Source of the DNA: Azolla caroliniana
Taxonomy: Eukaryota; Plantae; Polypodiophyta
NCBI GenBank assembly: GCA_043228905.1
Contig: JBHGNT010000006.1
Coordinates: 9,238,001 to 9,302,000, forward strand
Direction of reading: 5' to 3'
Length of the DNA: 64,000 nucleotides
In this document: positions 3,401 through 33,309 of the stretch, in pieces
Numbering within the stretch: position 1 is the stretch's first letter
Layout: every line of letters begins with the position of its first letter
Translations under genes and position numbers: made by a program
Notes under the pieces: model-generated
Databases searched by the model: none
Seen by the model: the letters and a program-made list of their open reading frames with translations, nothing else
What the model was told of the DNA's origin: nothing

Positions 3401-4103
3401 ATGGCGTCAACTACGAAGAGACCTTTGCCCTAGTGGCAAAGATGAAGACGGTGCGGACCGTAATTGCGATTGCCGCGGCGAAAGGGTGGCACCTCCATCA
3501 AATGGACGTCAAGAACGCCTTTCTACAAGGCGAATTAGAAGAGGAGGTGTACATGATCCAACCACCCAGCTTCAACTCGAGCACCCATCCAAAAGCTGTA
3601 TGCCGACTCAAGAAGCCACTCTATGGCCTCAAGAAACCACCGCGTGCTTGGCATTCGAAGATAACGCAATATCTTCATCAAATCGACTTCCGTATGTCAA
3701 AATCGGACAACTCCCTCTACATACGAAGCGATTCCGCAAGTCCGATCATCATCATCTTATATGTGGATGACCTAGTCATTGGAGGTGAGCATCTCGTCGA
3801 AATCACTAAGGTCAAATCCCTCCTTTCCGACAAGTTCGAGATGGTGGACATGAAGGAGCTCCACTACTTCCTCGGCATCGAGGTAATTCGGACTCCAGCC
3901 AGAATCTTGATCTCTCAATGGCACTACATCCTCAACTTGTTATACAAGTTCAGGATGGCTGAGTGCAAATCCACGGCAACACCGCTCGATCGTAATCTCA
4001 AACTAGATGCGAACTCCGGCACCAAAGCGTGTGAGCCGACTCAGTATCGGCAACTCATCGGGAGTCTCATCTACCTCACGATCACTCGACCCGATCTCAG
4101 TTA
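440..4103 (+). pseudogene. Copia A gag-pol, 5' part (gag/PR/IN/RT), with in-frame stops and frameshifts
   Basis: ORFs 440-979, 1283-1912, 1946-2470, 2509-3084 and 3154-4155 carry copia motifs; RT is cut at ITRPDLSY by element B. Confidence 0.93.
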
Positions 4104-4379
4104 TGACAAGAACGCACGCTCCCTTTCCACAACACTCGGCCACAATCGAGTCTAAAATCGAACACAGAAAAACGGATAATGAAATGCACGACACAAAGGA
4201 GAGAAGAGTACACAGGATGTTTAAAGTGGAAAACCCTGACAGGGAAAAACCACGGGAGTCCACTGACTCCAAACTATCATTATATCACAATGATTACAGC
4301 AGTGAGCTCACGGAGGCAGCGACCTCGTGCTCACAATCTTCGCCACAGGCGGCGGTTACAACAGAGGCAACGACCTCTT

Positions 4380-4423
<44 letters not shown>

Positions 4424-4836
4424 CACTGTTACGCGCTCTCTCTTCTTGCACCAACAAGAATGACAACAACTATGTTCTCTGTTTGCCCTAAGTCATATTT
4501 ATACTAATATGACTTTTCGGCTATTTACAAATATAGCCCCGATGGACTCTCAGAAACACATTTACAAATATGTCCCTTCATCCGGTGAGCACTTCTCACC
4601 GGGCCTTCACCATCCGGCTCTTGCCGGGTACTCCTCATCCGGTTCTCACCGGGTCTTCTGTAGCCGGGTACTCCACATCCGGTTCTCACCGGGTCTTCCG
4701 TAGCCGGGTACTCCTCATCCGGTTCTCATCGGGTCTTCCGTAGCCGGGCAGACCACATCTGGTTTCGGCCTCGGCCGAGTTTACTCATCAGTACTGTTCT
4801 TCTCACTTCCCATCCGGAGGGACCTGTTTCCTAACA
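4104..4836 (-). repeat. 3' LTR of copia B (733 bp)
   Basis: Direct repeat of 8846-9488; holds three copies of a 40-bp unit at ~4623-4742. Confidence 0.95.
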
Positions 4837-4847
4837 AATTCCCCCTT

Positions 4848-7800: not shown

Positions 7801-8812
7801 TCCCCATCTGGACACAGTCGTGATCACAGGCTGAGTAAGATGAGAAGCATTTCTGGTTTGGGGTAAGGTGGAACGACACTCCGGAGTCGACCACCCAAGT
7901 CATCTCGTCGCTGGCAAGGTTTATCTCACTCTCCTCGGTGATGAGCATCAACTCTTCTTCACTTGCCGCGATTGTCGTCGTTCCCTTCCGGTTCAGCCCC
8001 CTCCGGTCTTTACCGTTCCGGTCCAGTGTCCGCTTCGAATCGGTACCGTCGGTTTCCTTGTCTTTTCGGAAGTGCCGACAGTTCTTCTGGAAGTGTCCCG
8101 GCTTGCCGCAATAGAAGCAAGTAGGCCTCCCCCTTGACTTTGACCGTGTCCCCGACTTTTCCCGGTTCTGGGGACTACGGTTCCTTTGTCTTCCGCGTTC
8201 CGATTCGGTAAGGAGCGGTTTGGGGTCGGAGCTCGTATCCTTATCTTTCCGACATGCCTCCTCATCTAGCAAGCTCGACTTCACTCTTGCTAGGGATAAT
8301 CGTTTCCCTTCCGGCCCGGCGTTGCCCAAAGTGACAACCAACATCTCCCAGCTATTCGGGAGGGAACCGAGCAGGAGTAGCGTTAGTACCTCATCGGCGA
8401 GAGGTACTTCCAATGATGTTTCCTGGTGTATCAGCCCCTAGAAGGTATTCAAGTGCTCCGCCATGCTGGAGCCATCTTGGTACCGGAGTCTTACTAGCTT
8501 CCGAAATACCGAAACCTGATTGAAAACATTTTTGTTCTGAAACATAATGTCGATCTTCTCCCAGAGCTTATGAGCCTTGCTCTCTTCATTGAAGTTGTTG
8601 TATAGACTCATGTCGATGAAGCATTGTATGTAAGCGGTTGTCTTCATGTGCATCACCTCCCATATCGTGGCGTCGATTTTGTCCGGTCTCCTGTCCCCGA
8701 ACTGAACCTGCAACCAAAGATCTTTAATCATGAGCATGTCCCTCATCTTCGACTTCCACACAGAATAGTTGGAGCCGGTGAGCTTGAACATGCCTCCCAA
8801 CGAATCTTCCAT
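4848..8812 (-). pseudogene. Copia B gag-pol with stops and frameshifts
   Basis: Minus-strand ORFs with CFYCGKPGHFQKNC knuckle, WVVDSG protease, DNGGEY and NGLAERMNRT integrase, LLYVDDML RT, CDSQSAIHLAKN RNase H. Confidence 0.93.
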
Positions 8813-8845
8813 TTTTTTCTGTGTTACCTCGCTTTGATACCACTT

Positions 8846-9122
8846 TGACAGGAACGCACGCTCCCTTTCCACAACACTCGGCCACAACCGAGTCTAAAAT
8901 CGAACACAGAAAAATGGATAATGAAATGCGCGACACAAGGGAGAGAAGAGTACATAGGATGTTTAACGTGGAAAACCCTGAGAGGGAAAAACCACGAGAG
9001 TCCACTGACTCCAAACTATCACTATATCACAATGATTACAGCAGTGAGCTCACGGAGGCAACGACCTCGTGCTCACGATCTTCGCCACAAGCGGCGGTTA
9101 CAACAGAGGCAACGACCTCTTC

Positions 9123-9154
<32 letters not shown>

Positions 9155-9488
9155 ACACTGTTACGCGCTCTCTCTTCTTGCACCAACAAGAATGACAACA
9201 ACTATGTTCTCTGTTTGCCCTAAGTCATATTTATACTAATATGACTTTTCGGCTATTTACAAATATAGCCCTGATGGACTCTCAGAAACACATTTACAAA
9301 TATGTCCCTTCATCCGGTGAGCACTTCTTACCAAGCCTTCACCATCCGGCTCTTGCCGGGTACTCCTCATCCGGTTCTCACCGGGTCTTCCGTAGCCAGG
9401 CAGACCACATTCGGTTTCGGCCTCGGCCGAGTTTACTCATCAGTACTGTTCTTCTCACTTCCCATCCGGAGGGACCTGTTTCCTAACA
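8846..9488 (-). repeat. 5' LTR of copia B (643 bp)
   Basis: Direct repeat of 4104-4836 with one copy of the 40-bp unit; adjacent to the PBS. Confidence 0.95.
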
Positions 9489-9493
9489 AGTTA

Positions 9494-10136
9494 TCCGGTC
9501 GGTCTCCTTAGCCAATTCATGCAAACACTGCGTGCTACTCACTTGGATTGCGCTAAGCGAGTTCTACAATACGTGAGCGGCATAATGGATTGCGGCATCC
9601 TCTACAAGACCGCGATGCCAATACGACTCGAGGGGTACACAAACGCCGATTGGGCCGGCTACAAAGCTGATAGAAGATCAACCTCCGGATTTGTTTTCTC
9701 CCTCGGCAGCAGAGCAATATCCTGGAGTAGCAAGAAGCAGCCCATCGTCGCTCTTTCGAGTATGGAGGCGGAATACAGGGGTGTAGCCGTAGCTGCATGT
9801 GAAGCCGTATGGCTCAAGAGGATTTTGAAGGATCTGGGCGTACCCATCAAGGATCCGACTTCCCTTTACTGCGACAACATGAGCAGTATCTATCTGGCTC
9901 GGAACCCGGTGTTCCACGCGCAGAAAAAGCACATCGAAGTGCATTATCACTTCATCCGAGAGCGCGTTCTGGCTGGCGATGTCAACCTACAGCACATTAG
10001 CACCAATCTTCAAACGGCCAACATCTTCACTAAAGCCTTAGGAGCCGACAAGCTATGGCAATTCATGACCGATCTCGGATTGACGATCCCTGACCTGCCA
10101 AGCTTGAGGGGGAGTACTGAAGACACTACACAATAA
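9494..10136 (+). pseudogene. Copia A pol, 3' part (end of RT and RNase H)
   Basis: GYTNADWAG...RRSTSG...EAEY...CDNMS...KHIEVHYHFIRE...LRGS; continues the frame broken at 4103. Confidence 0.93.
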
Positions 10137-10374
10137 CGCGTGGATTCCGCAACCACGCAACGAAGCAGCGAAGAGCTGATCTACCACGCAAAGCCGCGAA
10201 GAAAGATGCAAGCCGAAGCACAGTCTTCGCACAACGCAAGTTGGAGCACGGATTCCGCAACTCCACAACTCCGCATAAAGCGAGCCGATGCGAGTCGACG
10301 CGGACTCCGAAACGCGAGTTGAAGCGGATTTCGGATACCGTATGAAATCGACCCGACTTGAGCTTGAGGGGGCA

Positions 10375-10751
10375 TGTTGAGAATCAAGCTCAACTTGGTC
10401 TAGTGTGTGAACTCACCTTGAGAGTGAAGAGACACTCCAACGGTCAAGAGTCACCATTATGTCGCCACTTTGTATTCTAGCATTTAGTATGCGTCATAGA
10501 ATCATATTCTATGACTTATAACTTATGAGCTTTCACATTCCCCATGCTCCATGAGGCTTGTAGTTAATGAAGAGAGAGGGTGACTACATAAAGCACCCTC
10601 CTCCCACCTTGTATAATGTTGAGTCTTTCTCCTTTGTCAATATACTTTTACCTTGCGTATTCTCTGTGTTTCTCTCTTTCTCTCTCTCTTACACACACAC
10701 ATAACTCACATCTCTTCCGCTTCACAAGAATCCATCTCTTGATTCTTTACA
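10375..10751 (+). repeat. 3' LTR of copia A (377 bp)
   Basis: TGTTGAGAATC...GATTCTTTACA, preceded by the PPT; matches 1-280. Confidence 0.95.
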
Positions 10752-10890
10752 CTCTACCTAGTACTTTAAATATTTTACTAATATTTACACTTATTTTTAC
10801 ACAAAGACATTTTCGTGTGCATCCGTGCACACCCCCGTTCACACGTATCCGGCTCCCCTTTCTCCCTATGCCCGGAATCCTTCACGACAT

Positions 10891-11230
10891 CAGTATAGAA
10901 GTAATCCGGGCACCAATCAGGATTATGATCTCCCAACAGCACTACATCCTCAACTTGTTATATAAGTTCGGGATGACTGAGTGTTGATCTGTGGCAACCC
11001 CTCTCAAGCGGAACCTAAAACTAGATGCTGACTCCGGCATAGAAGAGTGTGAGCTATCTCACTATCATCAGATAGTCGAAAACCTAATTTACCTCACTAT
11101 TACTTGACCTGACCTCAGTTATCCAATCGGCCTCCTTAGCTAGTTTATGTAGACACTACGAAACATTCACTTTGATTATGCTAAGCGAGTGTTACGCTAT
11201 GTAAGTGAGACGATAAATTATGGCATTGTC
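10891..11230 (+). pseudogene. Copia C RT remnant, left of the DNA transposon insertion
   Basis: IEVIRAPIRIMISQQHYILNLLYKFGMTEC...LRYVSETINYGIV, homologous to RT of elements A and D; several stops. Confidence 0.88.
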
Positions 11231-11256
11231 GGGTCGAAGCATGCTACGGTGTACCA
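11231..11256 (+). repeat. Left terminal inverted repeat
   Basis: GGGTCGAAGCATGCTACGGTGTACCA versus reverse complement of the right end, GGGTAGAAGCACGCTACGGTGTACCA. Confidence 0.93.
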
Positions 11257-11539
11257 ACTTTTGGCCAAAAATTTAGTACTAAATCGAAGAAGAAAAGAAA
11301 CATTAAAAATTGTAAATAAATTTCAAAAAACCAAAAACAAATTCATTACGTCACACTCGAATGTTCAAAGATATTATACGTCACACTCGAATGTCCCTAG
11401 GCCATATTTAATGCATTAAGTGTTGCCCCAGTCTCCTAGGTAGAGTTGTACGAAAGCACACCTGGAGAAGGTTTCCATTGTGACAGGTGGTCAGTGTCAA
11501 TCTCTCTCTCTCTGGTATTGGTAGTCGAACGTGTCAGTT

Positions 11540-11555
11540 GGTATGTCTCTCTCTC

Positions 11556-11601
<46 letters not shown>

Positions 11602-11690
11602 GTCTCGAAGTTGTCAGACAGACACCTTCGAAGGTCTGTTTCTCTCTGTCTCTCACTCACTCTCTGTCTCTCTGTCTCTCTGTCTCTCTG

Positions 11691-11752
<62 letters not shown>

Positions 11753-12130
11753 GTCTCGAAGTTGTCAGACAGACACCGTCGAGGGTCTGTTTCTCTTTGT
11801 CTCTCACTCACTCTCTGTCTCTCTCTCTCTCTCTTCTACCTCGAAGTTGTCAGACAGACACCTTCGAAGGTCTGTTTCTCTCTGTCTCTCACTCCACCTT
11901 CGAATGTCTCTTTCTTTCTTTCTTTCTGTTTCTCTCTCTCACTCCACCTTCGATTCTCTGTTTCCCCGTTGTTGTTGTTCTTGTGTTCCCCTCTGTGCCA
12001 GGTTCGATCTCTGAACTCTGTATACGCAGCAGCCTCTGCAGCAGCCTCTGAAGTTTGTCTCCTCTGCAGCAGCCTCTGAAGTTTGCTCGTTTGTCTCCTC
12101 TGCAGCAGCCTCTGACGTTTTGCTCGTTTG
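11540..12130. repeat. Repeats upstream of the cargo gene: three ~55-bp units separated by (CT)n, then CTCTGCAGCAGCCTCTGA repeats
   Basis: CTCGAAGTTGTCAGACAGACACC occurs at ~11604, ~11755 and ~11840; GCAGCAGCCTCTG occurs four times in 12025-12115. Confidence 0.8.
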
Positions 12131-12885
12131 TCATCCTGAAGTTTTCTCGTTTGTCTCCCAAGGTATCGAAATCAAGACGGTGTGGTACCTCTGCAAGTTT
12201 AGCGACCTCCAGGTATTCTCTGTGTTGCATGCCCAACTGGTATGTATTCTTTTTCTGAATGTTTCCTCTCTGTCTGTTTTTTATTTGTATGTGTATGACC
12301 ATTTGTAGGTTTTGATTATTCATAGTCTATGTGTTGCATGCCCAACTGGTATGTTTTTGTTTTCTCTGTGTTTCTCTGTGTTTCTTTTAAAAATGTATCA
12401 CAATATTTTGTTCGATGTGGTTGTGTGTTAGACATGTTTGTACATGTGGCCAAAATGGAGTTGGCTATGATGAGTTGCTATGTTTTTGTTTTGTTAATGT
12501 TTCATGTCCATCTGTTTTTATTTTGTGTGAGTTTGGCATGGATGAGTTTTTTTCCTACTATTTTGGGTTTTTGTATGTTGGACATGGCTTGTACATGCGA
12601 TGTGATGGAGTTGGTTATGATGATTTACAAAGTTTTCGTTTTCTTTGACTTTCCTATTCGTCTGTTTTTATTTTCTGTGTGTTTGACATGGATGAGTTTT
12701 ATTTTCTGTGTGTTTGACTATTTAGGGTTATTGTGTGTTGATTTGCAATGTGATGATTTGCTATGTGGTTTGTACATGTGGTTTGTACATGCAATGTGAT
12801 GATTTGCTATGTGTTGATGGTAATTGCGATGTGTTGATGGTAATTGATTTGCTATGTGTTGATGAGAATTGTGTTGACTAGGAAA

Positions 12886-15800
12886 ATGACGAGAAGGACA
12901 CCCATAAAGAAGACATTGATGAAAGAGAAAGTGAAGACACCAGTGAAGGAAGGAAGAAGGACACCCATGAAAGAAAGCAAGAAGACACCCACAAGAGAAA
13001 GGGTGATGAATTCATCAACACAGAGAAAGAAGACCTGGCAGTACCAGTCCATCAGTCGAGACACACCTCTTGGATGGAATTATTTCCTTCGGGCACGACC
13101 TGACGTTTACCCAGAGCTGAGAGAGTGGTTGTTAAAAACCTGGGGGTCAGCACATCCCGACACAAGGCGAGGATTCCACATGAGTGGTTTGAAGAGGGAA
13201 TACATCAATTTATTGAAGACGAGATACGAACATGTTTATGATACAAATCAAATCACTAACAATGAGGTGGGTACTGTTTTTGCACGTGCTTTTGCATGTG
13301 AAGTTCAAGGTGGCATCGACGTTAATTGGGAAGATTTTAATCGGCACCGGTCAGAACATTACAAAGGGTCCTCCAGTACCAACACTGGCTTGAAGTCATC
13401 TGGAACCTCTCATGTGGATATTCCAGCTACAACACCTGTCCAACAAGTTCTAGAGGCAAAGGTACGGGCCACAATGACTGAAAAACATGAACAGATGATG
13501 GCTGGTTGCATAGCTTCTATGAGCTCAAGAATACAAGCACTACTTGCTGATTTGGAAGCAGTTAAATCAGCTGAGATACAGGCAGAAAAGAAATTTTCTT
13601 CAATAAAGACTACATATGAATGGATTGCATCGACAATCCAAAATTCAGAAAGTGAGGTGTTGAAAGAGGAGTTGAAGAAAGAGCTGAACAATATGGGTGC
13701 TCAATTACATTCACAGATGACAGACCTTGATACTTGCAGGAATGCACATGAAGAAATAGATAATAAGTTGTCAGCCTTAAAGTTGCATTCTGAGAACCTT
13801 GCATGCTTGATGCAGGATTTAAAACATAATGGTTTTGATACTTTGTGTCCATCTGTAATTGAGCACCCAAGTGGTATAGAAAGTACCATTACTAGTATAG
13901 CTATATCACGGTATTAGCTTTAAAAGTTATTTATTTCTACTTTTATGGTATAAATAAGTGAGCAGCTAATATATTATAACTTGTGTTTGCAATCTTCCAG
14001 GTGTATATTTTGTGGCCTCGGATTCAAGCTGGAGGCTATGGATGTTGTGATTACACCATGCTTGCACACATATCATGTGCTATGTGCTAAGTATCATTTT
14101 GAGAAAGAGAATACATGTATGGACTGTAAAACTACAATTGCGGCTGAGTGGTACTATGCTTGGGGTTTAAAAGTACACCCGTACGGTATGTGGCTCTACT
14201 ATTCTATTGTTTGTATTATATAATGTCAATTATCATTTGGACTAGAACTAGTGTATGCCACAATTCATACTTAAAATTTAGGAGAACAATGGATTAGTAT
14301 TAGTGTATCTCTAACAACAATGGGATAGTATTGGCAGTACTCTTAATATATAATTGGTATGTGTAGTTAGTTGAAGGGATATTTTCCAGAATTAGTAGTA
14401 CTAAAAGGGAACCAGGTACAACATCGTCCAATCTATATTGTAACTTGCCTAGTATTAGTTTAGTAAACACTATACTTATAGTACACTGTTGACTGTTAGT
14501 ATTGTTTGTGTAACTTGGAAATTAGTACTAGTAATGTAATTTGGGAACAAGGTGTCACTTAAATTGCTGAATAATAGTACAGTTTCTGTAATTTGGAAAT
14601 GAGGTGTGTGAAACACATATCACGTTTAGTACTAATACTGTTCAAGTTCAATACTGTTGGTGTAATTAGTACAAGTTATGTAACTAGGTGTGTAGAACAC
14701 ATATCACGTTTAGTATTACTTGTGTGCAAAATACCAATCTACATTTGTTGGATTAGTACTTAGTAATTACTACATTGTTCATGATTAGTACTAGTTTTAT
14801 ACTTTGTGAACTAAGTTTCTAGTACATTGCTCATGATTAGTAATAGTTTTGTAACTAAGTGAGTAGTACATTGCTCATGATTAGTACTAGTTTTGTAATT
14901 TGGGAACTGAGTAGTACTTTGTTCCCTATTAGTACTAGATTTGTACCTTATTTGTGTAAATTGGTAACTAAGTGAGTAGTATATTGTGCATGATTAGTAC
15001 TATTTGTGTAATTTGGGAACTAAGTGAGCTGTACATTGTTCGGGATTAGTACTAGTTCAGTGATTTAGGAAATAAGTGAGTAGTACATTGTTCAAGATTA
15101 GTACTACTTATAAATTTGACAAAGTCAGTGGTGCATTTTTCGGGATTAGTACTTGTGCATGATTAGTACTACTTGTGTATATTGTGCATGATTAGTACTA
15201 TTTGTGTAATTTGCGAACTAAGTGAGCAGTACATTGTTCCTTATAAGTACTAGTCCACTAATTTAGGAAACAAGTGAGTAGTACATTGTTCATGATTAGT
15301 ACAGTGGTACATTGTTCGGGATTAGTACTCCTTGTGTAACATGGTAACTAAGTGAGTAGTATATTCTGCATGATTAGTACTACTTGTGTATATTGTGCAT
15401 GATTAGTACTACTTGTGTAAATTGGGAACTAAGTGAGCAGTACATTGTTCCTTATTAGTACTAGTTCAGTAAATTAGGAACTATGTGAGGAGTACATTGT
15501 GACCTACATTGTATATTTTAGATGATGGTACTAACGTTCAACGTTTTTTTGTTTCTTGCAATGAATGTCGTAGTGTCAAGCAACTCCACGCCAGGGAAGG
15601 TCATGGAACTACCAGCCCCTGTGCCTAAACCCTCAATATCTGCCGCACATTCCAAGGTTCAGGGACCATCATTACCAACAACCTATGATTTTTATGATGA
15701 GGATGAATGTATGAGAAGGGCCATTGGAGCAGTGGAACATATGCTTCTACAAACAAATTCCCCAAGCTCCGGTCAACAATTTGAAATAGAGCCCACTAAG

Positions 15801-17387
15801 AAGAGAAATGATGTGTCTTTAGAAATAGAGCCCAGTAAGAAGAGAAATGCTGCAAGAATGTTGTATGGAAACGGCAAGAAAAGGAAAGTTGAATGCAATG
15901 GTGAGTCATATAAGTTCTCACCTGTCAGGAGCGTTGTCAACCTAATCCATTGTCTAATACCATGTACTTGTGTTGCTAGCTGATGACGAAATGATATTTG
16001 GTGACGGAGATACGAGTTCAAAACCTGATCGTGAAGACGAATTTATCACACTCCCAGGTAAACGTCAAAAGCCAGACTTTGAAAACAATGATTTAGCTCA
16101 TAACAACCCTATTATATTGTTGCTTTTGGTGCATTCTATAGATCATAGCAACACTGTTGAGCACCTAGATGTTGTGGAGAAGATGACCGAGCCCACCACT
16201 TGCAATGGGGTATCTACGGCTGTACAGTATGACCATGTAACATTAGGTAAAAATGTGGCCCAAAACCCTATGTTCATTGTTTGCAAACTTTTGAGTATGT
16301 GAGTTGATACTAATATTGTTTGGAATCCCATTAATTAGGTTTACAAGAGCAGCCTGAATCGGGAACTTCATGGAGCACAAGTGCAGAGTCAGATTCTGGG
16401 ATTAACCTTTCCACGGAGGCAGATTCTGGAAGCACATCTTCCACACATGAGGATTGTGAGAAAAACGAAGCATTCATATGTGAAGAGCAGCTGGCATGTC
16501 CAAACAACAGTATGTCTAAAGAAGCCCATGAGGAGTGTGGAAAGAATATGGCAAGTACTGAAGAGAAGATTGAAGCCCATGAAGAGTCTGGAAAGAATAT
16601 GGCAAGTACTGAAGAGAAGATTGAAGCCTATGAAGACTCTGGAAAGAATATGGCAAGTACTGAAGAGAAGATTGAAGCTCATGAAGAGTGTGGAAAGAAT
16701 ATGGCAAGTACTGAAGAGAAGACTGAAGCCCATGAAGAGTGTGGAAAGAATATGGCAAGTACTGAAGAGCAGACTGATTGTACTGATAATGTGTTAGTAG
16801 TGTCTACTGATAATGTGCTAGTACTGTCTAAAGATTCTGATGAGGAGTATGGAAAGAACATTGCTAGTAATGAAGAGGAGCTTGATTGTACTGAGAATGC
16901 CCAAATGGATCGTGGAAAGAACATCGCTTTCCCTGAAGATAAGCCTGATTGTACAGAATCACATGAGGAGCCTGATTGTACAGATAAGCCTGATTGTACA
17001 CGTAGTCTTAAGAATGAGTTGACAGCCACCGTACAAGAGGAGTTGACCATGACTACTGCCATAGTCCACATACAGGAGTCTAATAAGAACGAGTGTACAG
17101 GCATCATTGATGATGATAGGGGAATAAAGATGAGTGATAATTTGACTATCGACAGCACCTTTGTGGATTTGTGTACAAGCATTGCAGTTGCAGAAAACAC
17201 AGTTGCTCTCTCAAGCTTGCCACCAGTACAAGGTGCCCGCGCATCCACGCCTATCTCTGATGCCTCTGATGATGAAGTGCCACTTAGTCAGCTCATACCT
17301 AAAGGCTTTAAGATAAAGAAGAATGTAAAATCTGGCACCAACAACAAGCGCATTACAAGATCGGCCAAGTTACCCTCTAGTGCCTGA
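12886..17387 (+). CDS. Transposon cargo protein, ~922 aa: basic N-terminus, Trp-rich unknown domain, coiled coil, RING-H2, acidic repeats
   Basis: Predicted GT-AG exons 12886-13910, 14001-14185, 15574-15900, 15980-16057, 16142-16246, 16339-17387 join in frame (2769 nt, no internal stop). Exon 2 encodes C-x2-C-x15-C-x-H-x2-H-x2-C-x10-C-x2-C. Confidence 0.75.
14330..15500. repeat. Degenerate AGTAC(T)-rich tandem array in cargo gene intron 2
   Basis: Roughly 30 AGTAC copies by eye, in recurring units such as ATGATTAGTACTA and AAGTGAGTAGTACATTG. Confidence 0.85.
16521..16775 (+). repeat. Coding minisatellite, 5 x 51 bp (EAHEECGKNMASTEEKI)
   Basis: Units start at 16521, 16572, 16623, 16674 and 16725. 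Confidence 0.93.
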
Positions 17388-18307
17388 TTTTCTTCCGATT
17401 GTACTTGAACTTTAGCTGTTAGTGATGTCTGAAATACCTCTATTTGGATACCAAAATACTGTTTCAATTGCCAATGTCAAAATTCCACTTCTGTATTTTG
17501 TAGAAACAATGGGAATATACTTTTTGATCTAAGTATTCCTCTTTTTACAACGTTTTGTTTCTTTTTTGAGATCATCTCCTGATGAGTTGCCAAGTCTTTG
17601 AGTCTGTTGTAGATAAAATGCTTGAAATTCTTCTTAGCTTGCTAGGAAAATTTAGGTTTTCAGGTGTTAATGATGATAAACAGAAAATATCGGGTGTTAT
17701 TGAAGTATAGACTGTTTCATCAATCCCATTTGGAGGGTAACCAGAATTTGTGCAAATTGTTGAAGCAATGTGGGCCATATTTTGATGATATCATCCCAAT
17801 GGATGAACTATCCACTAACAGTAGTAAGGAAACACTCCCCTTTTTGAGCTATCACAAATTATTGTTTCAGGAGTTGGATTATTTTGTTAAGGAATTTGAG
17901 GCTTCATTGCACATTTGCTTCTTGAAGAATGAACTTACAGTATAAAATCTTACAATATTAAAGTCATAATTTGAATTCAACTTACAGATTTATGTGCCTA
18001 CAGAGGACACACCAACGGCAATGAATCTAGACTTTATCAAGAAGATATACAATATTTTTACTCATTTTACCATGGCTCTGCAAAACTTCTATGCTCAAAT
18101 AACATCAGGAAACATGAGCAATATCGGCAATGAAGAAATCCAAGTCTTGTTGACAACAACTAATATATTATGAAAGATAAGTACAAGTGGTTGACAGGCA
18201 TAAACACTTTAGAAGAAAGATGAAATATATCAATTCATTTGTCAATCATCAAAATTAATAGTGAACTCCAAGTATTGAGAGGGTACAATGTATTGAGAGG
18301 GTGACTT

Positions 18308-21300
18308 TCAAGCATTAAATAGAGAGACCTCCCCTAATATGTGCTCATGAACCTCTTGGGGGACCTTGTAGACAGTGTTGTATCCCTTAACCTTGTGCTT
18401 TGCTTGAGTCATATTGAATTTGATCGCAAGAATGGCATCAGCGTAGATTATTGCGATGGGTGCTTCTTTTAGTAATGCATATGTGTTCTTGCACTGCGGC
18501 AACTTTGCATAATAGTTTCCATACACGACAGACTCACCAACGTTGAAATTGTTGCCCCAGCCATCCCTCACCACTTCTTTCAATAATGTCTTTCCTTGCT
18601 TGCACACCACAATGTAGTAGTCTTCTAAATCTTCATTCTGAGGAGATTTGAGCACTGCAAAATGATCTCCAACTTCCAATAAAACTGCCAAGTCTTGATT
18701 TTGGTTGTAGTATACAATATCGTTTGAATGCACATCATCTTCAATATCATCTTGTCGTTCAGGCTCAAGCTTCTGCAACTTCCAGGGCTCCACGATTGAT
18801 AGGTTGATGCATTTATCCCAAGCTTCATCTATACACATGGAACAAAAGCATGATAAACTACGTAGTAACAATTGTGTTGTGTCCTTGCGGCTAAACCCTA
18901 ACACACAATGGGTGCTGCGTGTGCCTTTCACGGTTTTACAACCATATGATTTAGTTCTATCGACCTCATCAGCGCGAACTTCAACAAACAATCTGTTCTT
19001 ACCATCATTTGACATCTTCCATGTTAGCCACTGCACAACATCATGTGCATTTTGTAGCTTAGCACCATTATTATCCAACTGCTCACTTGTAAGGGCACGT
19101 TTGATCACAGCCCCCGCGCCATCATGCTCTCCTTTTCCATGTCCAGACCCGAGGTAATTCCATTGCATACGAATGTTGAATAAGGAGAAATACCTGCTTT
19201 TGTAACTCAGGTTTCCAACAAAATTAGTACTATGTTGTCAATAGAGAGTACTACACTTCCATTAATACTGGCATCCATTTAATACTAACTTAGTATGGAT
19301 ATAACTTAGTACTAACTTAGTCTGGTTTATACTATGAGTACAAGATGAGTACTTTACATCCCCTTGTATAGTACAATGTGTCTATGGAGAACCCTTCACA
19401 TGGATTAAAACATAATTAGTACAATTCTCTTAAGGACGGACAATACTATAAGTACAAGATGAGTACTTTACATCCTTTTGTAAACACAACATAGTACAGA
19501 AGCAACACACAACATAGTACAATGTGTCTATGGAGAACCCTTCACATTGATTAGTCGATACTTAGTACAATTCTTAGTACTAACTTAGTCTGGTTTATAC
19601 TATGAGTACAAGATGAGTACTTAACATCCTCTTGTATAGTACAATGTGTCTATGGAGAACCCTTCACATGGATTAAAACATAATTAGTACAATTCTCTTA
19701 AGGACGGACAATACTATAAGTACAAGATGAGTACTTTACATCCTTTTGTAAACACAACATAGTACAGAACCAACACACAACATACTACAATGTGTCTATG
19801 GAGAACCCTTCACATTGATTAATCGATACTTAGTATGGATATAACTTAGTACTAACTTAGTATGGTTTATACTATGAGTAGAAGATGAGTACTTTACATC
19901 CTCTTGTATAGTACAATGTGTCTATGGAGAACCCTTCACATGGATTAAAACATACTTAGTACAATGCTCTTAAGGACGGACAATACTATGAGTACAAGAT
20001 GAGTACTTTACATCCTCCTGTAAACACAACATAGTACAGATACAACACACAACATAGTACAATGTGTCTATGGAGAACCCTTCACATGGATTAAAACATA
20101 CTTAGTACAATGCTCTTAAGGACGGACAATACTATGAGTACAAGATGAGTACTTTACATCCTCCTGTAAACACAACATAGTACAGATACAACACACAACA
20201 TAGTACAATGTGTCTATGGAGAACCCTTCACATGGATTAAAACATACTTAGTACAATGCTCTTAAGGATGGACAATACTATGAGTACAAGATGAGTACTT
20301 TACATCCTCCTGTAAACACAACATAGTACAGATACAACACACAACATAGTACAATGTGTCTATGGAGAACCCTTCACATGGATTAAAACATAGTACAAAC
20401 AAAATTAGTATGCATGCATCCATTCACAAGTGCAAGATTCGAATAGTTACAAACATAATTAGTATGCATCCATGTGAATAGTACTGTTTGTTAATAATTA
20501 CAAACATAATTAGTATGCATGCACTAACACAAGAATTACTTCCTTACACATTGCATGGTAAGTACTAAACATATGGATTAAAAATTACCTGGCGATAAAG
20601 TAGAACGATCGTGCCACCTTAAACTGCGAGGCAGCACCATCAGACCAAACCCAATGACGGTTAAAGGTTACCCCTAGAGAAAATAAATCTGCATGGTGAA
20701 GCTTAAAACAATGTTGAACAAATAGTGTATCATGCTTTTTATCATCTGAAATGTAAAATATTGATTTCTTATGTAACTCACCGTCTTGCCTCCAATAGCA
20801 AATATGCACAAGTATTGTACATTGATCATTGTACCAATGCATTGATTGAACCTCATTCTGAACTTTAAATGTATAGTTTTCTGCAAAGTCAATAACAGAT
20901 ACGATGACACCCGTTGGTAAGTTATTAATACATTCCTTGAATTGTGAATTTTGCCAATAACTCCGGAAGTTATGTGGAATGAACTCCCCAAGTTGTTTCT
21001 TAAATTCTGAGACAAGGGTAGCAGCACATGTCTCCTTATATACTTCCTTGATACGCTTAGTTACAACTCCCTTGCCAATATTTTCAGTCACATACTCTAA
21101 ATATTTCCATTTCACGATATGACTGTTTCCCAAATCAAGCTCCTGCATACAAAATAATGGTAGCGGACAAACCTTACATGTTCTTAATAGACATGTACGA
21201 CGATGCCACTCACATGATGGTTCTTTTTCACAAACACAAGACCTCCATAGCTCAGAAACAGATGCATAAGTCATGTTTCGTGCATTACACCTATTATCCT

Positions 21301-22236
21301 CCCCATTTGGTCTACATATCTCACAAGTGCAGACACATAATTCCCCGTGTATACCCTTACAATCAGTACGCATTGCATTCACGGCTAGCCTTAACATGTC
21401 CATCTTCACATGGTACACACAACAACATGTATTCCTCTCATTTAATTTTCTAACATAAAATGGTTTCAAACCTTGGAACTTGCGGAATCCAACAGTCAAG
21501 CTTGGATGTTGATCTTTAAAGTTCATGTACAATTCAGCCTACATCAACCAATATATATAGCAAACATTAATATACAGTTGGTCAAAACACAAAGTTATGG
21601 AATGTGAAATGATATAAAAAAATGGAATACCTCTGTCATCTCCAAGAAGTGTCTAGGGTGAATCTGGTACTTACCCTGACTTATTCGTTGTCTACACACG
21701 TCCTTCTTATTTGGTGAGACACGCGTATTTTTGGCCCAAAATGAATCCACTTTCTCAATAATCTCTTGAGATAAGGCATCACATCGTCGTCTACGTCCCA
21801 ACCCCATCCACTTGAATTTGTTTGAGTGTATATTTTGGCGATGTTTCCTCAAGTTCCTTCTTTGAATACCCAGGGCTAAGGCAACTTTAGTATCACTATA
21901 TTTTTTTCCTCTCGCACCGTTCACAACCATGTGTAGGGCTGCCCTCTTTGCAGCAAGTTTGTCTAAGCTCTCTACACCTTTCACTAAGTCTAGGGATGAC
22001 TTCATAGACTCTACAATCTCTTCTGAAACACATTGGTCCCTAAATTTTATTCTCTCCATGTCTTCATTCAAACTTTGATGGTGTAACACTCTACAGATAA
22101 TATCCCTACGATCCTCTTCACTAAATCTCTTTGTTATTTCTACCAAATAACGGACTATGTGAAGAACCACTCGTCTCTTAGTCCTTTCAGATATGCATGA
22201 GTTACTTGACAACTCACTCTCGTTAGGAACCCCCAT
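18308..22236 (-). CDS. Sola2-like DDD transposase, ~813 aa, intact, 3 coding exons (an extra upstream exon is possible)
   Basis: Exons 22236-21631, 21538-20589 and 19193-18308 join in frame at GT-AG sites (2442 nt). Cys-rich region (CCCVYH, CVCTCEIC, CLLRTCKVC), then catalytic motifs VIDFAENY, WSDGAASQFK and GHGKGEHDGAG, and C-terminal SCFCSMC. Confidence 0.85.
19290..20395. repeat. Compound tandem array in transposase intron 2
   Basis: AAGATGAGTACTTT recurs eight times (~19340, 19455, 19610, 19725, 19880, 19995, 20140, 20285): ~270-bp two-part units followed by ~146-bp units. Confidence 0.92.
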
Positions 22237-22316
22237 TCGGTCACTAGATTTATCCGCAAAAATTAAGTGGCTTGCAAAAGTAGTTAATGTTATATAGACT
22301 CAACCAAGAAAACACA

Positions 22317-22910
22317 ATCAAATGTTTTTAAATGTGGCCTGCAAAGTGAAAGATATTTCGTTTCAAACATTAGAATTACATATCAAATATGACAATTGTC
22401 AGTTCTAAAATTTTTGTACTGAAATATGAAGAAATGTAACATTTTAGTACTGAAAATAAAAAAAACGGTTTGGTGAAAGGAACCTCCAATGGTGGACGGA
22501 GCGTTGGATATGCCGCCTCGATTTGGTGGAAGGAACCTCCAATGCCGCCTCGATTTGGTGGAAAAAGCCACAAATCACCACGACACCAAATCAAATGTTT
22601 TTAAATGTGGCCTGCAAAGTGAAAGATATTTCGTTTCAAACATTAGAATTACATATCAAATATGACAATTGTCAGTTCTAAAATTTTTGTACTGAAATAT
22701 GAAGAAATGTAACATTTTAGTACTGAAAATAAAAAAAACGGATGGAAGGAACCTCGAATGGATGGAGGGGGCGTTGGATATGCCGCCTCGATTTGGTGGA
22801 AGGAACCTCCAATGGTGGACGGAGCGTTGGATATGCCGCCTCGATTTGGCGGAAGGAACCTCCAATGCCGCCTCGATTTGGTGGAAAAAGCCACAAATCA
22901 CCACGACACC
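22317..22910. repeat. Tandem duplication (~273-bp period) upstream of the transposase, with internal sub-repeats
   Basis: ATCAAATGTTTTTAAATGTGGCCTGC at ~22317 and ~22590; ATGCCGCCTCGATTTGG repeated five times. Confidence 0.9.
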
Positions 22911-23394
22911 AACTTCAATGGATGGATGTAAGAAAGTCGTTGTCGAAGAAGTCACTATTGGCTGCTACCAACAGTCTCTGTACCTCGACCTAAACCCTAA
23001 CAAAAACAGAAACCCTAAAAAAATCAGAAATCCTCAACTTAAACGCTCAAAACAGACATGGATGTCTGAGATTTAGATTGGAGGAAATCAGAAACTGAAC
23101 ATGGATCTGTGATGAAAAGCTCAGAGGGATAGAGGAAGAGGAGTATGAGGGGAACCGCCAAAACGACGTGAGGGGAAGCGCCAAAATCGACGTGAGGGGA
23201 AAATAGCCCCCAAAATGGAATGAACATCTCCTCACCTGTTCCCCCCACTCCTTCTACAATAAATGACACTTGTACTACAGTCACCCCACTCTCCAAAATC
23301 GATTTTCTTTTTCTCTGATTTTTTTTTTTTGAATTATTCATACTAACAGTACTAAAAGTACTGACAATTTTTGTGGCCAAAAACAGTACTTTTC

Positions 23395-23420
23395 TGGTAC
23401 ACCGTAGCGTGCTTCTACCC
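23395..23420 (-). repeat. Right terminal inverted repeat
   Basis: TGGTACACCGTAGCGTGCTTCTACCC followed by the TSD TGTC. Confidence 0.93.
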
Positions 23421-23945
23421 TGTCTACAAATCAACCACACCAATTCGACTCGAAGGGTACACCAATGCTGATTGAGTTGGCTGCAAGGCCGATAGACGAT
23501 CGACTTCAGGATTCGTTTTCTCCCTCAGCAGCGAAGCCATATCTTAGAGCAGCAAAAAGCAACTAACAGTCGCACTTCGAGCATAGAAGCCGAATATAGG
23601 GGTGCGGTCATCACACCATGTGAAGCCGTTTGGCTGAAAAGAGTATTGAAGGATCTAGGCATTCCCATCAAGGATCAGATTCTCCTTTACTACGACAACA
23701 TGAGCAATATTCATATGGCTCCGAACCCAGTGTTCCACACGCGCACAAAGCATATCGAAGTGCACTATCAGTTCATCCAACAACGCGTTCAGGCTGGAGA
23801 TGTCAATATGCAGCACATCAATATGAACCTTCAAGTAGCCGGCATCTTCACCAAAGCCTTAGGAGTCAACAAGCTCAGGCCATTCATGATGGACCTTGGC
23901 CTAATGATAGCCGCATTGTCGAACTTGAGGGGGAGTACAACAACC
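23421..23945 (+). pseudogene. Copia C RNase H remnant, right of the DNA transposon insertion
   Basis: YKSTTPIRLEGYT...YDNMS...HTRTKHIEVHYQFI...LRGS, with stops and a frameshift. Confidence 0.88.
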
Positions 23946-26409
23946 AACGTGCACAACATAGCAACTAAGCAACCGATCGAAGACGACCAAAGGAGTAGTG
24001 ATTCCATCACCAACTTGGCCAATCCTAAGATGGGCACGTCTCAACTAATTATGGACAAACCCCACAGTTTGATTCCATGCCAACTCAACTGAGAAGGGCC
24101 AAAATCAAAGTTTACAGAATAAGGTGGATCTGGCCCTATGTGAGGAGATTCCATCTTTAAATTCAAATGAGGAAGCACAAGATGTTGGAACTGTTCACAT
24201 TGGATTTGGGAAAGCAACAAGATCACAAAACATAATAAGTGGTAATAAGTTAGTAAGGTATGCCAAAGTGTTTTGGATTTGTTCATTTTGTTCACCAAAT
24301 ATGGCAAGTATTAATGGTTTGTGATACTTGTAATTTTGGCCTAAAAGATAGGTTCCAACTTGCATGTTGAAGGTTGGATCTGTTGGTCTACGTGGGTGAT
24401 GTTGATTTGCGATCATTGTGCAAAGCGGGGGAGATGGCATCCACCCGGATGATGTCAAGCGTATTCAACATGTGGATGGAATATACGCAACCCTAAGAGG
24501 TTTGCAGTTGGTATTGGATTGTCGATCCACTTTGGGTGCAACTTGTCATTCAAAGAAACAAGGTGGATCATATCCTAGGACGTGTGCGAAAGCAGGATTA
24601 TGTATTCTCACCCAGAGTGCTTGCTGGTCATTGGGTGCTTTGGATGAAGATTCTCAATAGTCAAACCAATTTGGATGCACACAAGGTGACCAACTAGGTA
24701 GTATTTTGGCAATCCATTGAATGAGATGGTTGCAAGGGAGGTCTCAAGCACACTTGGAGACCATTGCATCATACCGAAGAACCAACATCACGACCTCCGC
24801 ATCCCACCTCACCCAAATGTGCCGACTATGGATATTATGTGATGCATATGATTCGGAGGCTAGTGGAGGAGTTCATACAAGGCTTGAGATCTCTCCAGAT
24901 TTTGTAAGTGTCTTTCATGTTCTGATTGTGTACAAATAGTCTTCGTAAGTTGGTTCTTATAATTGTTGTTTGATAAGGGTTTGAGCACTAGTTTGGACAT
25001 GAAGACATGGAGCTTCTTCAGATGACTTGGGCAAGTCTTGTTTTGGGCCGATAGATTTCATAAGTTTTGGAATTTTGCCATTACATTTTGCATATTCCAA
25101 TTTTGTAAATTTTGATTGAACTGGAGCATATGTTAACTACCCCATGTCAACTAGTAGCCAGACTTGAAGACATTTGTGAGTAACCCGGCTCAATGTAGTA
25201 GCCTGATTCAAAGTCATTAATGAGTAGCCTAGCTCATGTAGTAGCCCGACTTGAAGACACCAATGAGTAGCCCGACCCAATGTAGTAGCTTAATGAGAAC
25301 CCCAATCAAAATGACAAAAGTCAAGCCAACTACATGTGATGATCACATTTCAACGATCATAAGCGATAATTCAGCCATTCTTTTTCCATCATAAATGATC
25401 ATTAAAGGTAGTCAGCTTCATATTTGATCATTTTGCAATCATTTTTCCCTCAATTTTCGTTATAAACTCAACTTTCTACTTTTTGTCATTTTCATAAGTG
25501 CTAGCAATTTCATACACTTACCTATAATTTGTGATCATGTAGGGAGACGTTGATTTCATATTTGTCATGTCGGAAGACAAAATAGAGGAAATATCTCTAT
25601 ATTCCACAATTTCAATTACATTTGCTCAAGACAACAAGTTTGGAGCATCCGAAACCGAGGACAACGTAGATCCCTTGATGTATTGTTTCCCCCGTGTATT
25701 TTGCATTCAATCGAGATACACATGAATTGATGGTTAAAGATTTATTAGGAATAATTAAGCTCATGATTGAATGATTTATAGATATCGCAAAGGGTGCACC
25801 TCTTAATCTTAACTCATGGAGGCACATGAAGAGTCGACTCATGCTAGGAAATAAGAGGCAATTTACCTTACGGTGCCACCTAATCTTCAAGAAGTTACAT
25901 AGAGCAATGAAGAGAGATAGTGGGAAATAAATTTGCACTCAATATGGGGCGCATCGCATCACCCACTCCCACAGACTCTTAAAGAGTTAAAAAAACATTG
26001 GGCGTTGGATCTTCGTGATCATGGAATTGCTTGTGCATGCATAAAAGCATGAATTGACCAATGTTGTTGCCAATTAATACAAAACGCAACAACAAATAAC
26101 ATATATGGGAATGAGTGTAAGTAAATATAATAAGACTAAACCTGCATAAGTGATCGAGGTAGAAGCATGTAAGTTACACGATACTCTCGTGGATGTTCAA
26201 ATCAAGAATAGCACATGTTTGCATAAAGCGGTTTGAAACGATGAATTATTGCAAAGATGACTAATTTGATGTTGGGTGTGCAAGGCATGTTGCCAAAATG
26301 AGCCGATCAAAAGAACTAGTGCAGAAATCTACGACTAGTTCATTAGAGCAAAGTTTCTCTTAGATTCTTTCTGATACCAATGGAGGTGCATAATATGGTC
26401 AACAAGTTG

Positions 26410-26835: not shown

Positions 26836-29800
26836 ATGAACACCCAGATGGGAAGCGCTCTTCCCACCGAGAAGCTCGATAGAACAAACTTCGTATCTTG
26901 GGAGTACAAGATGCATCAGCAACTTGTCGGACAAGGTTAATGGAGCTATATCGAGGGAGCTCACGAAACGAAACGAAACCCAACACACGTTGACTACCTA
27001 GCGTGGGAGCAGGCCGTGAGCCGTGTGTTGTATTGCCTTGCATCATGCGTCCATGACCACATGCTCGGCTATATTCGAGAGTCTAAAACACTGAAAGAAG
27101 CTTGGGGAAATCTCAAGAAGATCTTTGCGGCCAATACGGCTGCACGAAAGCCAGCTTCGACAGGAACGAAACAACAGAGGCATATGTCGATCATTGGATA
27201 TACCTTGAAGATCAAGGAATTGTGTGATGCCCTCGGATCGATCAATGTTATCATCGACGATGACGAAATGGTGCAAATATGCCTCGGCGGCTTAGCACCA
27301 CGATTCGGCACGATCAGATCAGCCATTCTCGCAAGGGAGAACCCACCTTCCTTTTTTGACCTTCAATCAATATTATTGGTGGAAGAAAACCATGCTCGAC
27401 AAAGGAGCAATGCATCGGATGGTCAGATGCTCTACTCACAATCGGACGATAGAAGAGGATTCAACCAAGGAAATAGAGGTCGATTTGGCCGAGGGCAACA
27501 GGGTCATTCGACCCGAGAACGCAACTCTCACCAGTGGCAAGATGACATGAACAATCCTAGAGAGTTCGGTAGAAGGGGGAACCACCCCGCCGGACCGAGC
27601 AATCGTAACAACTTGATCAAATGCGGGTATTGTGGAAAACACGAACATTATGAAAAGGAGTGCTGAAAAATGATACGAGATTCGGCTTCGACTAGCCGAC
27701 AACTCACGAACTACGCTTCAAATTCTGACTACGACGATCGTGGCGGGATGTTCGTAATGAGGCATGAAGCACATTCGATGTCGGCACAGGCCCCGACTAG
27801 CACCTCTTCTTCAGATAGCATATGGTGTGTCGACTCGAGAGCATCCAATCACATGATGTCCCATGAAGATTGGTTCCGAGAATTACGAAAGCCCGATCGA
27901 CCCGGCTATGTCGAAACCGGAGATGATACGACTCACCCAATTCGACATGTCGAAAATGTTCCATTCAGAAATGACGGTAAACAAACCTACCTCAAGAACT
28001 TCTTGCATGTCCCAACCATCACAAAAAGCCTAGTCTCGGTCGGCCAGATTGTCGAACAAGGTATGCAAGTATGATTCAATAATGAAGGGTGCTTCATCGA
28101 AAAGGACGAGCAAATCATAGTGCATGGTCGCTGAGAAGGCCGAATGTTCATCCTCGAATCAGAGGAGGTGAAATCGACTATGTTCGCAAAAGGCCTCAAA
28201 GTGGAAACAGACTTGAAACTGTGGCACAAGAGAATCGAACACATCAATCTCCAAAAGCTCTAGAACATGCAGTCAAAAGTAGTCGTAATCAAACTCCCGA
28301 CATTTAATGAGAAAGAGATTACGAGCATATGTGAGGCGTGCCAATTCGGAAAACAACACCGACATCCATTCCCAAAAGGGAGGAATGTGAGTAAAGGGAT
28401 CGTAGATGCAGTACATTTAGATGTGTGGGGACCAGCCCAGACCGCAACATTCGGAGGTTGTCACGACTATGTCACGTTCATCGACAACTTCTCCAGGCAC
28501 ACCTGGATCTACCCTATGCGGCAGAAGAGTGAAGTGTTTGAACACTTCCAAAAGTTCAAAAATGAAGTCGAAAAAGGCATGGGTCAGTACGTACGATGCC
28601 TTCGATCTTATGAAGGAAAGGAGTATTTCTCGGACGAATTTACGGCGTATCTCCGAAAGGAAGGAATTCGACGAGAATTCTCATGTCGACATACACCTCA
28701 CCAAAATGGTGTAGCCAAACGGAAGAATCAGCACATAGTAGAGGTTGCATGGGCAATGATGAATGAGAAGAACTTGCCAAAATCATATTGGGCAGAAGCG
28801 CCGAACACATCCGTATATCTCATGAACATGTGTACAACCTTTGGGGTACACAATGTGACCCCTCATGAGAGGTTTAGGGTTTATCACATGTGCGTATTTT
28901 CAGCTCAATAGTCTATGTGCATATTCCCGACGAGACGCGACAAAAGCTCGACCTGAAGTCAGAGAAATGTATCCTCGTAGGGTACTCACTTGGACAAAAG
29001 GAGTACAAATGCTACAACCCATCTACCCGAAAAGCTCAAGTGAGTCGAGACATCATTTTCAATGAATCGACATCCTGGTACAATCCTGAGACGACTCTGA
29101 TTTCTACTCCAATCGACTCAGAATTTGCCGAACAAGAGATACAAGAAGAAGATCAACTCAGACTCACATACGAAGACGACCCACAAATGACAAGGCTAAG
29201 TGGACCATTATCATTATGCCTTTATGATAAAGATAGCAATTTTCCGAGAGCCAGAAACATTTTCCGAAGCCGTGAAGGACCCGCGATGGGTCGATGCGAT
29301 GAATGAAGAAATGCAGGCCTTGTGCAAAAACGAGACATGGGACCTTGTTCCCCATTCACCTCACAGGAAAGTGATAGGTAGTAGATGGATCTATAAGGTC
29401 AAATGCAACCCCGATGGCTCAGTAAATCACTTCAAAGCACGACTTGTCGCAAAAGGATACGCTCAAACACACGGAGTTGATTACGAGGAGACCTTTGCCC
29501 CGGTGGCAAAGATGACGATTGTTCAGACAATCATAGCTCTCGCAACTACAAAAGGGTGGCACCTCCACTAGATGGACGTAAAGAATGCCTTTCTACAAGA
29601 TGAATTAGAAGAGGTGTACATGATACAACCACCTGGCATCAAATCACGTACTCACCCGAAAGTCGTGTGCCGACTCAAGAAGCCACTCTACGGCCTTAAG
29701 CAAGCACCGTGTGCTTGGCATTCAAAGATAACGCATTATCTTCATCAAATCGGTTTTCGAATGTCGAAATTCGACAACTCCCTCTACATCCGAAACGAGC

Positions 29801-33179: not shown

Positions 33180-33309
33180 TGCATGAGAGACAGTGAATGT
33201 TTGACTGTCAAGAAACGGCAACCCTGTTTCCCACCGTTTCCTTCCTTCCATCCATTCTTCTTCTTCCTACTCTTTCTTTCTTCCTTCCTTTCTTCTTCTT
33301 CTTCTTCAT

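Follow-up and report, generated by a model that had tools for sequence, protein, structure and literature searches.

Can a plant DNA transposon carry, opposite its transposase, a second gene that is inherited with the lineage, and what might such a gene do for the element? The question is raised by a 12.2-kb element with two convergent spliced genes at positions 11231-23420 of a 64,000-nucleotide stretch of the Azolla caroliniana genome (contig JBHGNT010000006.1, positions 9,238,001 to 9,302,000, forward strand), hereafter called the window. By motif comparison the element's transposase is of Sola2 type, and the element is almost certainly a two-gene Sola2 with a heritable accessory gene, which we call gene 2. 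Throughout, L-numbers denote related loci, X-numbers sequencing runs and P-numbers homologous proteins.

The element, its transposase and its copies

The left end of the element is a 26-bp terminal inverted repeat (TIR; 11231-11256, plus strand), and the right end is a TIR of the same length (23395-23420, minus strand), at whose last position, 23420, DNA contigs from the sequencing runs also end exactly. Both TIRs begin with GGGT and pair at 24/26 positions, and a TGTC target-site duplication (TSD) lies on either side (11227-11230 and 23421-23424). In silico deletion of the element together with one TGTC yields a continuous host copia frame for reverse transcriptase (RT) and RNase H, itself with stop codons, the decayed halves of which lie on the plus strand at 10990-11226 (RT) and 23425-24092 (RT/RNase H). 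A contig of run X1, with a loose end before 23425, carries another copia copy that is uninterrupted at the insertion site. The first-pass annotation, a reading of the letters of this stretch, had described GGG-starting 26-bp TIRs and a TGTC duplication whose removal restores the copia frame, and this description holds. So does its statement that both genes are unbroken amid decayed retroelements, as the longest frames of the neighbouring copia elements reach at most 356 amino acids (aa), which is consistent with decay.

Both ends of the window element and the ends of its relatives start with GGG, as would fit the 5'-GRG termini that Bao et al. reportedly gave for Sola2 in 2009. The Sola2 ends in Additional file 11 of PMC3627910 start with GAA, GAG or GTT, that is, with G but not always with GRG, so that GRG may not be a defining feature of the group. 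Sola elements are described as having a 4-bp TSD and TIRs of 11-1124 bp (PMC10741241), a range that includes 26 bp, and the 4-bp TSD was found here (TGTC), in the loci L063-L065, which form one cluster (CAAA), and in a 433-bp element at L028 (AAAA).

The transposase is an 813-aa protein encoded without an internal stop by three minus-strand exons. Exon 1 (22236-21631) encodes an N-terminal region that is likely DNA-binding, exon 2 (21538-20589) a Cys/His-rich region and the first two catalytic aspartates, in the motifs DFAENY and SDGAASQFK, and exon 3 (19193-18308) the third, in HGKGEHDG. The motifs start at aa 419, 501 and 537 and place the triad of aspartates (DDD) at aa 419, 502 and 543, in agreement with the uninterrupted spliced frame of about 813 aa with three acidic motifs that had been predicted. 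All plant relatives that span these positions keep the triad. Its residues fall in conserved Asp columns of the published Sola2 alignment (PMC3627910 Additional file 10), and comparison with the 14 named Sola2 rows of that alignment, made by eye and unscored, gives a motif-by-motif match through blocks that run, from the N-terminal side of the Cys/His cluster onward, in the order F..RP...VCVC.YH, DFAENY..Q.E.QS.HW, ISDD..HD, SDG.A.Q.K and WN...S.HGK...DG.G..VKR. It is on this match that the Sola2 identity proposed at first pass is upheld. The three exons retrieved no match from Pfam, DUF7869 included, an absence that is expected for Sola (PMC5751038), and a PDB sequence search with the transposase gave nothing under E 0.35.

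In one homologue search with the transposase, 40 of 322 candidates were long proteins; another gave 4,387 representatives at E<0.001. Named homologues include proteins of Klebsormidium, Ceratodon, Calypogeia and Adiantum, the best-scoring match being an Adiantum protein at 59%, which makes the fern-like host suggested at first pass plausible. A quick tree was built from 90 rows, namely the window, L007, L010 and those hits up to P0189 that span over 330 aa of the core, with shorter hits excluded. Of these, 37 rows group in a single clade that includes the proteins of the alga, the liverwort, the moss and the window, with a support (Shimodaira-Hasegawa-like approximate likelihood-ratio test, SH-aLRT) of 99, and one named row outside it is from a clam. 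The tree includes no named Sola references, and the clade stands among unnamed relatives. Plant relatives share a C-terminal extension with the transposase, and the position of intron 1 (92 bp, 21539-21630) is common to relatives of about 40% identity, while intron 2 (19194-20588) is seen in the close group only. The ratio of nonsynonymous to synonymous substitution rates (dN/dS) is 0.10-0.23 for exon 2 (7 loci) and 0.18-0.19 for exon 3 (2 loci), values by which the transposase is under purifying selection. Searches with one short pattern each retrieved 28 candidate stretches from viral contigs and 7 from prokaryote genomes, and no transposase relative was found in any of them. The Klebsormidium homologue P0016 is annotated as a 1,180-aa protein with leucine-rich repeats ahead of the transposase, which reflects either the fusion of two genes in the model or a domestication.

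The nine closest of the 75 related loci are 76-98% alike to the window element, and five of these nine extend to the same TIR, beyond which their flanks all differ. In three of the four DNA runs, 11, 8 and 11 contigs (30 in total) leave the element exactly after 23420, into flanks that agree with one another at 0.47-0.48, lean AT-rich and have summed depths in the thousands, contig depth at the right end not being equal to copy number; the fourth DNA run, X2, gave one contig, which stops short of the TIR. Because these 30 contigs leave exactly at the TIR into discordant flanks, the family is multi-copy, and because five of the nine closest loci reach the TIR with different flanks, together with the exact contig ends, the TIR pattern is not due to chance. 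Other TIR-bounded copies, which the annotation had proposed to look for, are thus present. The nearest DNA copies are 98-98.5% alike to the window copy, and 52-80% of the window's words are present in runs labelled as four organisms.

Expression was assessed in three poly(A) RNA runs, about 12% of each of which was read, with 226 reads aligned. Since none of the 226 is at least 99% alike to the window copy, the reads come from related copies. Together with the two TIR mismatches and the 98-98.5% likeness of the nearest DNA copies, this does not bear out the suggestion that the window copy itself may be active. The Sola2 family, nevertheless, has spread and is expressed through these related copies. 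Transposase reads and gene 2 reads map to opposite strands, as convergent transcription would produce provided that the libraries were stranded in the usual way. As for the splice junctions, that of intron 1 is marked by the loose ends of 7 reads of run X23, and that between exon 1 and the RING exon of gene 2 by 9 and 6 reads, all from related copies. Near-identical contigs of run X1, whose type is not on record, are spliced at intron 1 and use the intron 2 donor. The predicted junctions are therefore supported in RNA at these sites; for the acceptor of intron 2 and the other four junctions of gene 2, the support comes from frame and conservation.

Run X1 also contains a near-identical copy that joins 16414 to 20349, apparently without the 3.9 kb between them, and that reads as an internally deleted sister copy. 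Its transcript, spliced from the donor of transposase exon 2 to cryptic acceptors at 20370 and 16022 and beyond, runs antisense to gene 2 and is a possible truncated-transposase or antisense regulator. Smaller elements and broken copies were found at other loci. The 433-bp element at L028 (2002-2434) resembles a miniature inverted-repeat transposable element; its TIRs start with GGGT, as in the rest of the family, and its target duplication is AAAA. A 2,972-bp element at L063 (9959-12930; also in L064 and L065) has GGGT-starting TIRs, a CAAA duplication and no transposase match inside, and is likely a non-autonomous relative. Two decayed transposase copies of the clade lie head to head within 10 kb in L023-L026 (about 1635-3593 and 8394-11601), and L034 holds a second transposase copy fragment.

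The accessory gene

Gene 2 encodes a 922-aa protein in six plus-strand exons separated by five in-phase GT-AG introns, without an internal stop. Exon 1 (12886-13910) encodes a basic N-terminus, a helical domain of about 120 aa without a Pfam family (the N-domain) and a coiled coil, and exon 2 (14001-14185), the one whose junction with exon 1 is seen in related-copy RNA, a RING-H2 finger. Exons 3-6 (15574-15900, 15980-16057, 16142-16246 and 16339-17387; junctions predicted) encode basic patches, acidic 17-aa repeats (16521-16777) and a basic C-terminus. The RING finger follows the C3H2C3 pattern with 8/8 metal ligands and matches zf-RING_2 at E 4.5e-5 with 24.1 bits, below the cut-off of 27.3, and gene 2 is accordingly annotated here as a predicted ubiquitin ligase. 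Homologues of exon 1 form six protein clusters at 60-98% identity. Among the RNA differences listed for the RING exon, 7/9 are at third codon positions and 2 alter a residue.

The conservation of this arrangement is clearest at L010, whose transposase is 42% identical to that of the window. This locus has a TIR at 8327, and its convergent gene repeats the order of gene 2, namely N-domain, coiled coil, RING, an array-bearing intron and an acidic then basic tail. We grouped the 75 loci into 55 clusters, 14 of which extend at least 4 kb downstream of the transposase, and searched these with a RING profile built from two sequences, the window and L010. A downstream RING on the opposite strand was found in 5/14 (L010, L026, L034, L041 and L050), or in 4/13 without the training locus L010; the RING of L026, at a distance of 9 kb, may belong to another copy. 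Considering only clusters whose transposase match reaches aa 660, the fraction is 5/7. The best hit on reversed sequence, used as a control, had an E of 0.21. By the same profile 8/14 long clusters are without any RING, and L028 has one upstream. In L034, L041 and L050 an L010-type N-domain lies upstream of the RING (E 5e-21 to 5e-33), and the gene 2 C-terminus is convergent to the transposase in L007 too. Gene 2 diverges faster than the transposase, as at L007, where identity is 59.5% over 42 C-terminal aa vs 87%. Judged by its retention opposite transposases that are about 40% alike, gene 2 belongs to the lineage, and the two-gene lineage that the annotation had put forward is borne out in this respect; the RING domain, the deep conservation of gene 2 and the motif arrays described below go beyond it.

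A spacer separates the stop codons of the two genes (17388-18307), and it is there, at 17556-18279, past the gene 2 stop, that the plus-strand poly(A) coverage by related copies (88-95% alike) is greatest. This part may be a long 3' untranslated region (UTR) that reaches the transposase 3' end, or a captured piece transcribed elsewhere. A third gene in the spacer, suggested by the plus-strand RNA, was set aside for now because Pfam, blastx, tblastx and blastn searches gave no match and the L007 spacer is different.

Motif arrays and the possible role of gene 2

Two introns of the window element contain tandem arrays rich in TAGTAC. The long intron 2 of gene 2 (14186-15573, plus strand) is built of units of about 52 bp and has 42 copies of the motif, and transposase intron 2 (minus strand) is built of 146/268-bp units and has 30; none occurs in the three transposase exons, and 7 occur in the 51.8 kb outside the element. 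No alignment is obtained between the two arrays. At L005 and L007, relatives of 87% identity, other units again (19 and 41 bp) carry the same motif in 25 and 27 copies. In a simulation, any 5-mer was shared at the observed per-unit counts in 155/20,000 unit pairs. Across the relatives, a 5-mer is enriched at p<1e-8 in 12/19 transposase introns (AGTAC/GTACA in 6, AGCTA in 3, and CATTA, ATGGA and GTCCA), compared with 4/51 control tiles of the window and 16/98 of the flanks, a comparison weakened by Poisson p-values that tandem repeats inflate, by the relatedness of the loci and by control tiles that are not introns. The intron motif arrays, then, differ by subfamily.

Given the anatomy of the element and what is known of DDD transposases, the transposase would cut at the GGGT-ended inverted repeats and paste the element with a 4-bp duplication. 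The gene 2 protein may in turn bind the rows of TAGTAC in the element's own introns, and its RING finger, as a predicted ubiquitin ligase, may keep the copies of that subfamily transcribed against host silencing. Such an action would parallel that of VANC in VANDAL elements, which are Mutator-like. This VANC-like anti-silencing by gene 2 is our best reading, drawn by analogy and held tentatively, at somewhat less than an even chance. Extended to an ancient plant Sola2 clade (streptophyte alga, mosses, liverworts and ferns) with a sequence-addressed anti-silencing device of its own, independent of VANC, in which a fast-evolving DNA-binding domain and a RING ligase would read subfamily-specific intron arrays and desilence those copies only, the proposal is a more doubtful one.

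Several results weigh against an anti-silencing role for gene 2. A strong motif is lacking in 7/19 of the relatives' transposase introns, motif sharing between the introns of L010 is weak (TCCA, p 2e-5; AGTCC, p 5e-4), and 9/14 long loci have no downstream RING, in 7 of which the transposase match ends by aa 540. The N-domain has no Pfam family, and its atlas leads, Transposase_32 and ATHILA ORF1, score 0.82-0.83, under the 0.9 line, and are leads only. AlphaFold models of the window and L010-type N-domains were unusable (predicted local distance difference test, pLDDT, 42.0 and 39.4), and a single Foldseek search found nothing under E 5. Because the two N-domains share one short motif, AR..E..VNW (HHalign probability 3-5%, BLAST E 8), the window and L010-type versions of gene 2 are linked by the RING and domain order only. 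AGTAC, moreover, recurs in introns of relatives that are 42-45% alike, where the gene 2 N-domain may be unrecognisable. No sequence likeness of gene 2 to VANC is shown, the parallel not being drawn from sequence comparison, and the RNA reads, as noted, derive from related copies, none being as close as 99% to that of the window. Finally, AGTAC lies 28-45 bp from both termini and, in the region upstream of the transposase (22237-23394, minus strand), which contains 153- and 132-bp duplications, occurs 13 times vs 2.5 expected, and this placement fits binding by the transposase equally well.

It is accordingly possible, if on the whole unlikely, that the motif is read by the transposase itself, which would bind it near the termini to transpose and in the arrays to regulate itself, and that gene 2 is a cofactor or regulator acting on the transposase, for example by ubiquitinating it. 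Besides the AGTAC copies near the termini and upstream of the transposase, the persistence of AGTAC across relatives with transposases still alignable is in keeping with this, and in 4 of 13 relatives tested (L005, L013, L059 and L060) the leading 5-mer of the intron also shows a modest enrichment in the region upstream of the transposase; in 9/13, however, the two motifs best shared with that region do not include the leading intron motif. A transposase alone has been described as activating cognate copies sequence-specifically (preprint 10.64898/2026.08.24.746577), and tail-to-tail two-gene Harbingers offer a precedent for an obligatory partner (PMC12477816). Nevertheless, the TIR core of the family is conserved across the clade while the intron motifs change, and the densest arrays lie deep in the introns, at least 2.9 kb from either end.

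Rather less probable is that the arrays arose as a by-product when replication slipped around a palindromic seed and local duplication then spread the result, and that gene 2 is a DNA-blind RING ligase, one that for instance degrades a host silencing or repair factor. Tandem arrays are also present in the 16/98 flanking tiles of related loci mentioned above, both TAGTACTA and TAGCTA are palindromic, gene 2 could not be assigned a DNA-binding fold, and the weak sharing at L010 points the same way. Slippage would not readily account for the same motif in four unrelated units (19, 41, 52 and 146 bp) of two introns and three elements, or for its absence from the three transposase exons. That gene 2 is a captured host RING gene and passive cargo would suit the commonness of RING fingers in plant genes and the loci without gene 2, yet we regard this as very improbable: its convergent position and domain order are the same at about 40% transposase identity, it is unbroken here across five in-phase introns, its RING exon has a third-position bias, and an informative name is attached to 0/9 of its homologues.

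The surroundings of the element and comparison with known systems

Within the element, a CT-rich, locally duplicated stretch upstream of gene 2 (11500-11950, plus strand) is a likely promoter or 5' UTR. Outside it, several nested, broken copia elements in both orientations occupy 1277-10136 and 26941-28911 of the window, and the host copia family is represented once more at 9396-10136, immediately upstream of the insertion. A single 1,395-aa open frame at 33205-37392 (plus strand) is, from a reading of its sequence, presumably a very long PLS-type pentatricopeptide-repeat gene. The 618-aa frame at 60809-62665 (minus strand) has a PHD finger and an acetyltransferase-like end, and we take it to resemble the host anti-silencing factor IDM1.

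Neither Sola2 in plants nor a two-gene Sola is new. Sola1 is on record from Physcomitrella (PMC9033089, PMC10741241), Sola is listed in a table for Ceratopteris (PMC6890710), and Sola2 is the most abundant DNA transposon superfamily in a cypress (conifer preprint 10.64898/2026.07.23.736688), so that the first-pass description of Sola2 as mostly an animal and protist group was overstated. The same applies to its description as transposase-only, given the published Sola2-Fanzor elements and a two-gene Sola1 of 21.5 kb (PMC12477816). What we did not find in print is a companion gene with N-domain, coiled coil, RING-H2 finger and acidic tail opposite transposases about 40% alike, together with subfamily-specific intron arrays; the literature consulted, with Repbase Reports, subscription papers and bioRxiv supplements outside the search, described neither a RING-bearing nor a motif-array plant Sola2.

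How transposons survive plant methylation is understood for very few families. If the anti-silencing reading is true, a second, unrelated superfamily would pair arrays with an accessory protein, addressed anti-silencing would have evolved more than once and would predate seed plants, and ubiquitin, given the RING finger, would be the effector to consider. As both genes are unbroken in the window copy, binding, ligase and transposition assays are directly possible, and the element could be of use in ferns as a native tool for cut-and-paste insertion, and as a desilencing module that can be programmed. Should the mechanism fail, the plant Sola2 clade would still be well defined and its accessory gene one to characterise.

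The closest functional parallel is with VANDAL and VANC of Arabidopsis, where binding and demethylation are proven (PMC5735166, PMC10398659), whereas for gene 2 they are hypothetical. A RING finger is not part of VANC as these papers describe it, and how VANC acts is left open (PMC5735166). Sola1-1_Ec32 of Ectocarpus (PMC12477816) is, like the window element, a large Sola with an accessory gene on the opposite strand, a gene proposed to bind and epigenetically modify its own sequence, but it is a Sola1 of a brown alga and encodes ParB and a DNA methyltransferase instead of a RING. The Sola2-Fanzor1 elements of Dictyostelium and Polysphondylium (PMC3627910) likewise have a Sola2 transposase and a second gene inside the TIRs and a 4-bp TSD; their passenger is a TnpB-like nuclease, whereas that of the window element is an N-domain/coiled-coil/RING protein kept across a deep clade. 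At 12.2 kb, the element is larger than the usual Sola of 2-9 kb and smaller than the 15 kb or more also reported (PMC10741241). With Sola2 as represented in the PMC3627910 alignment it shares the 4-bp TSD, short TIRs, a DDD triad with the same flanking motifs at similar spacing, a Cys/His-rich region before the core and AT-leaning targets, and it differs in its separate plant clade, C-terminal extension, two introns, convergent RING gene and intronic motif arrays.

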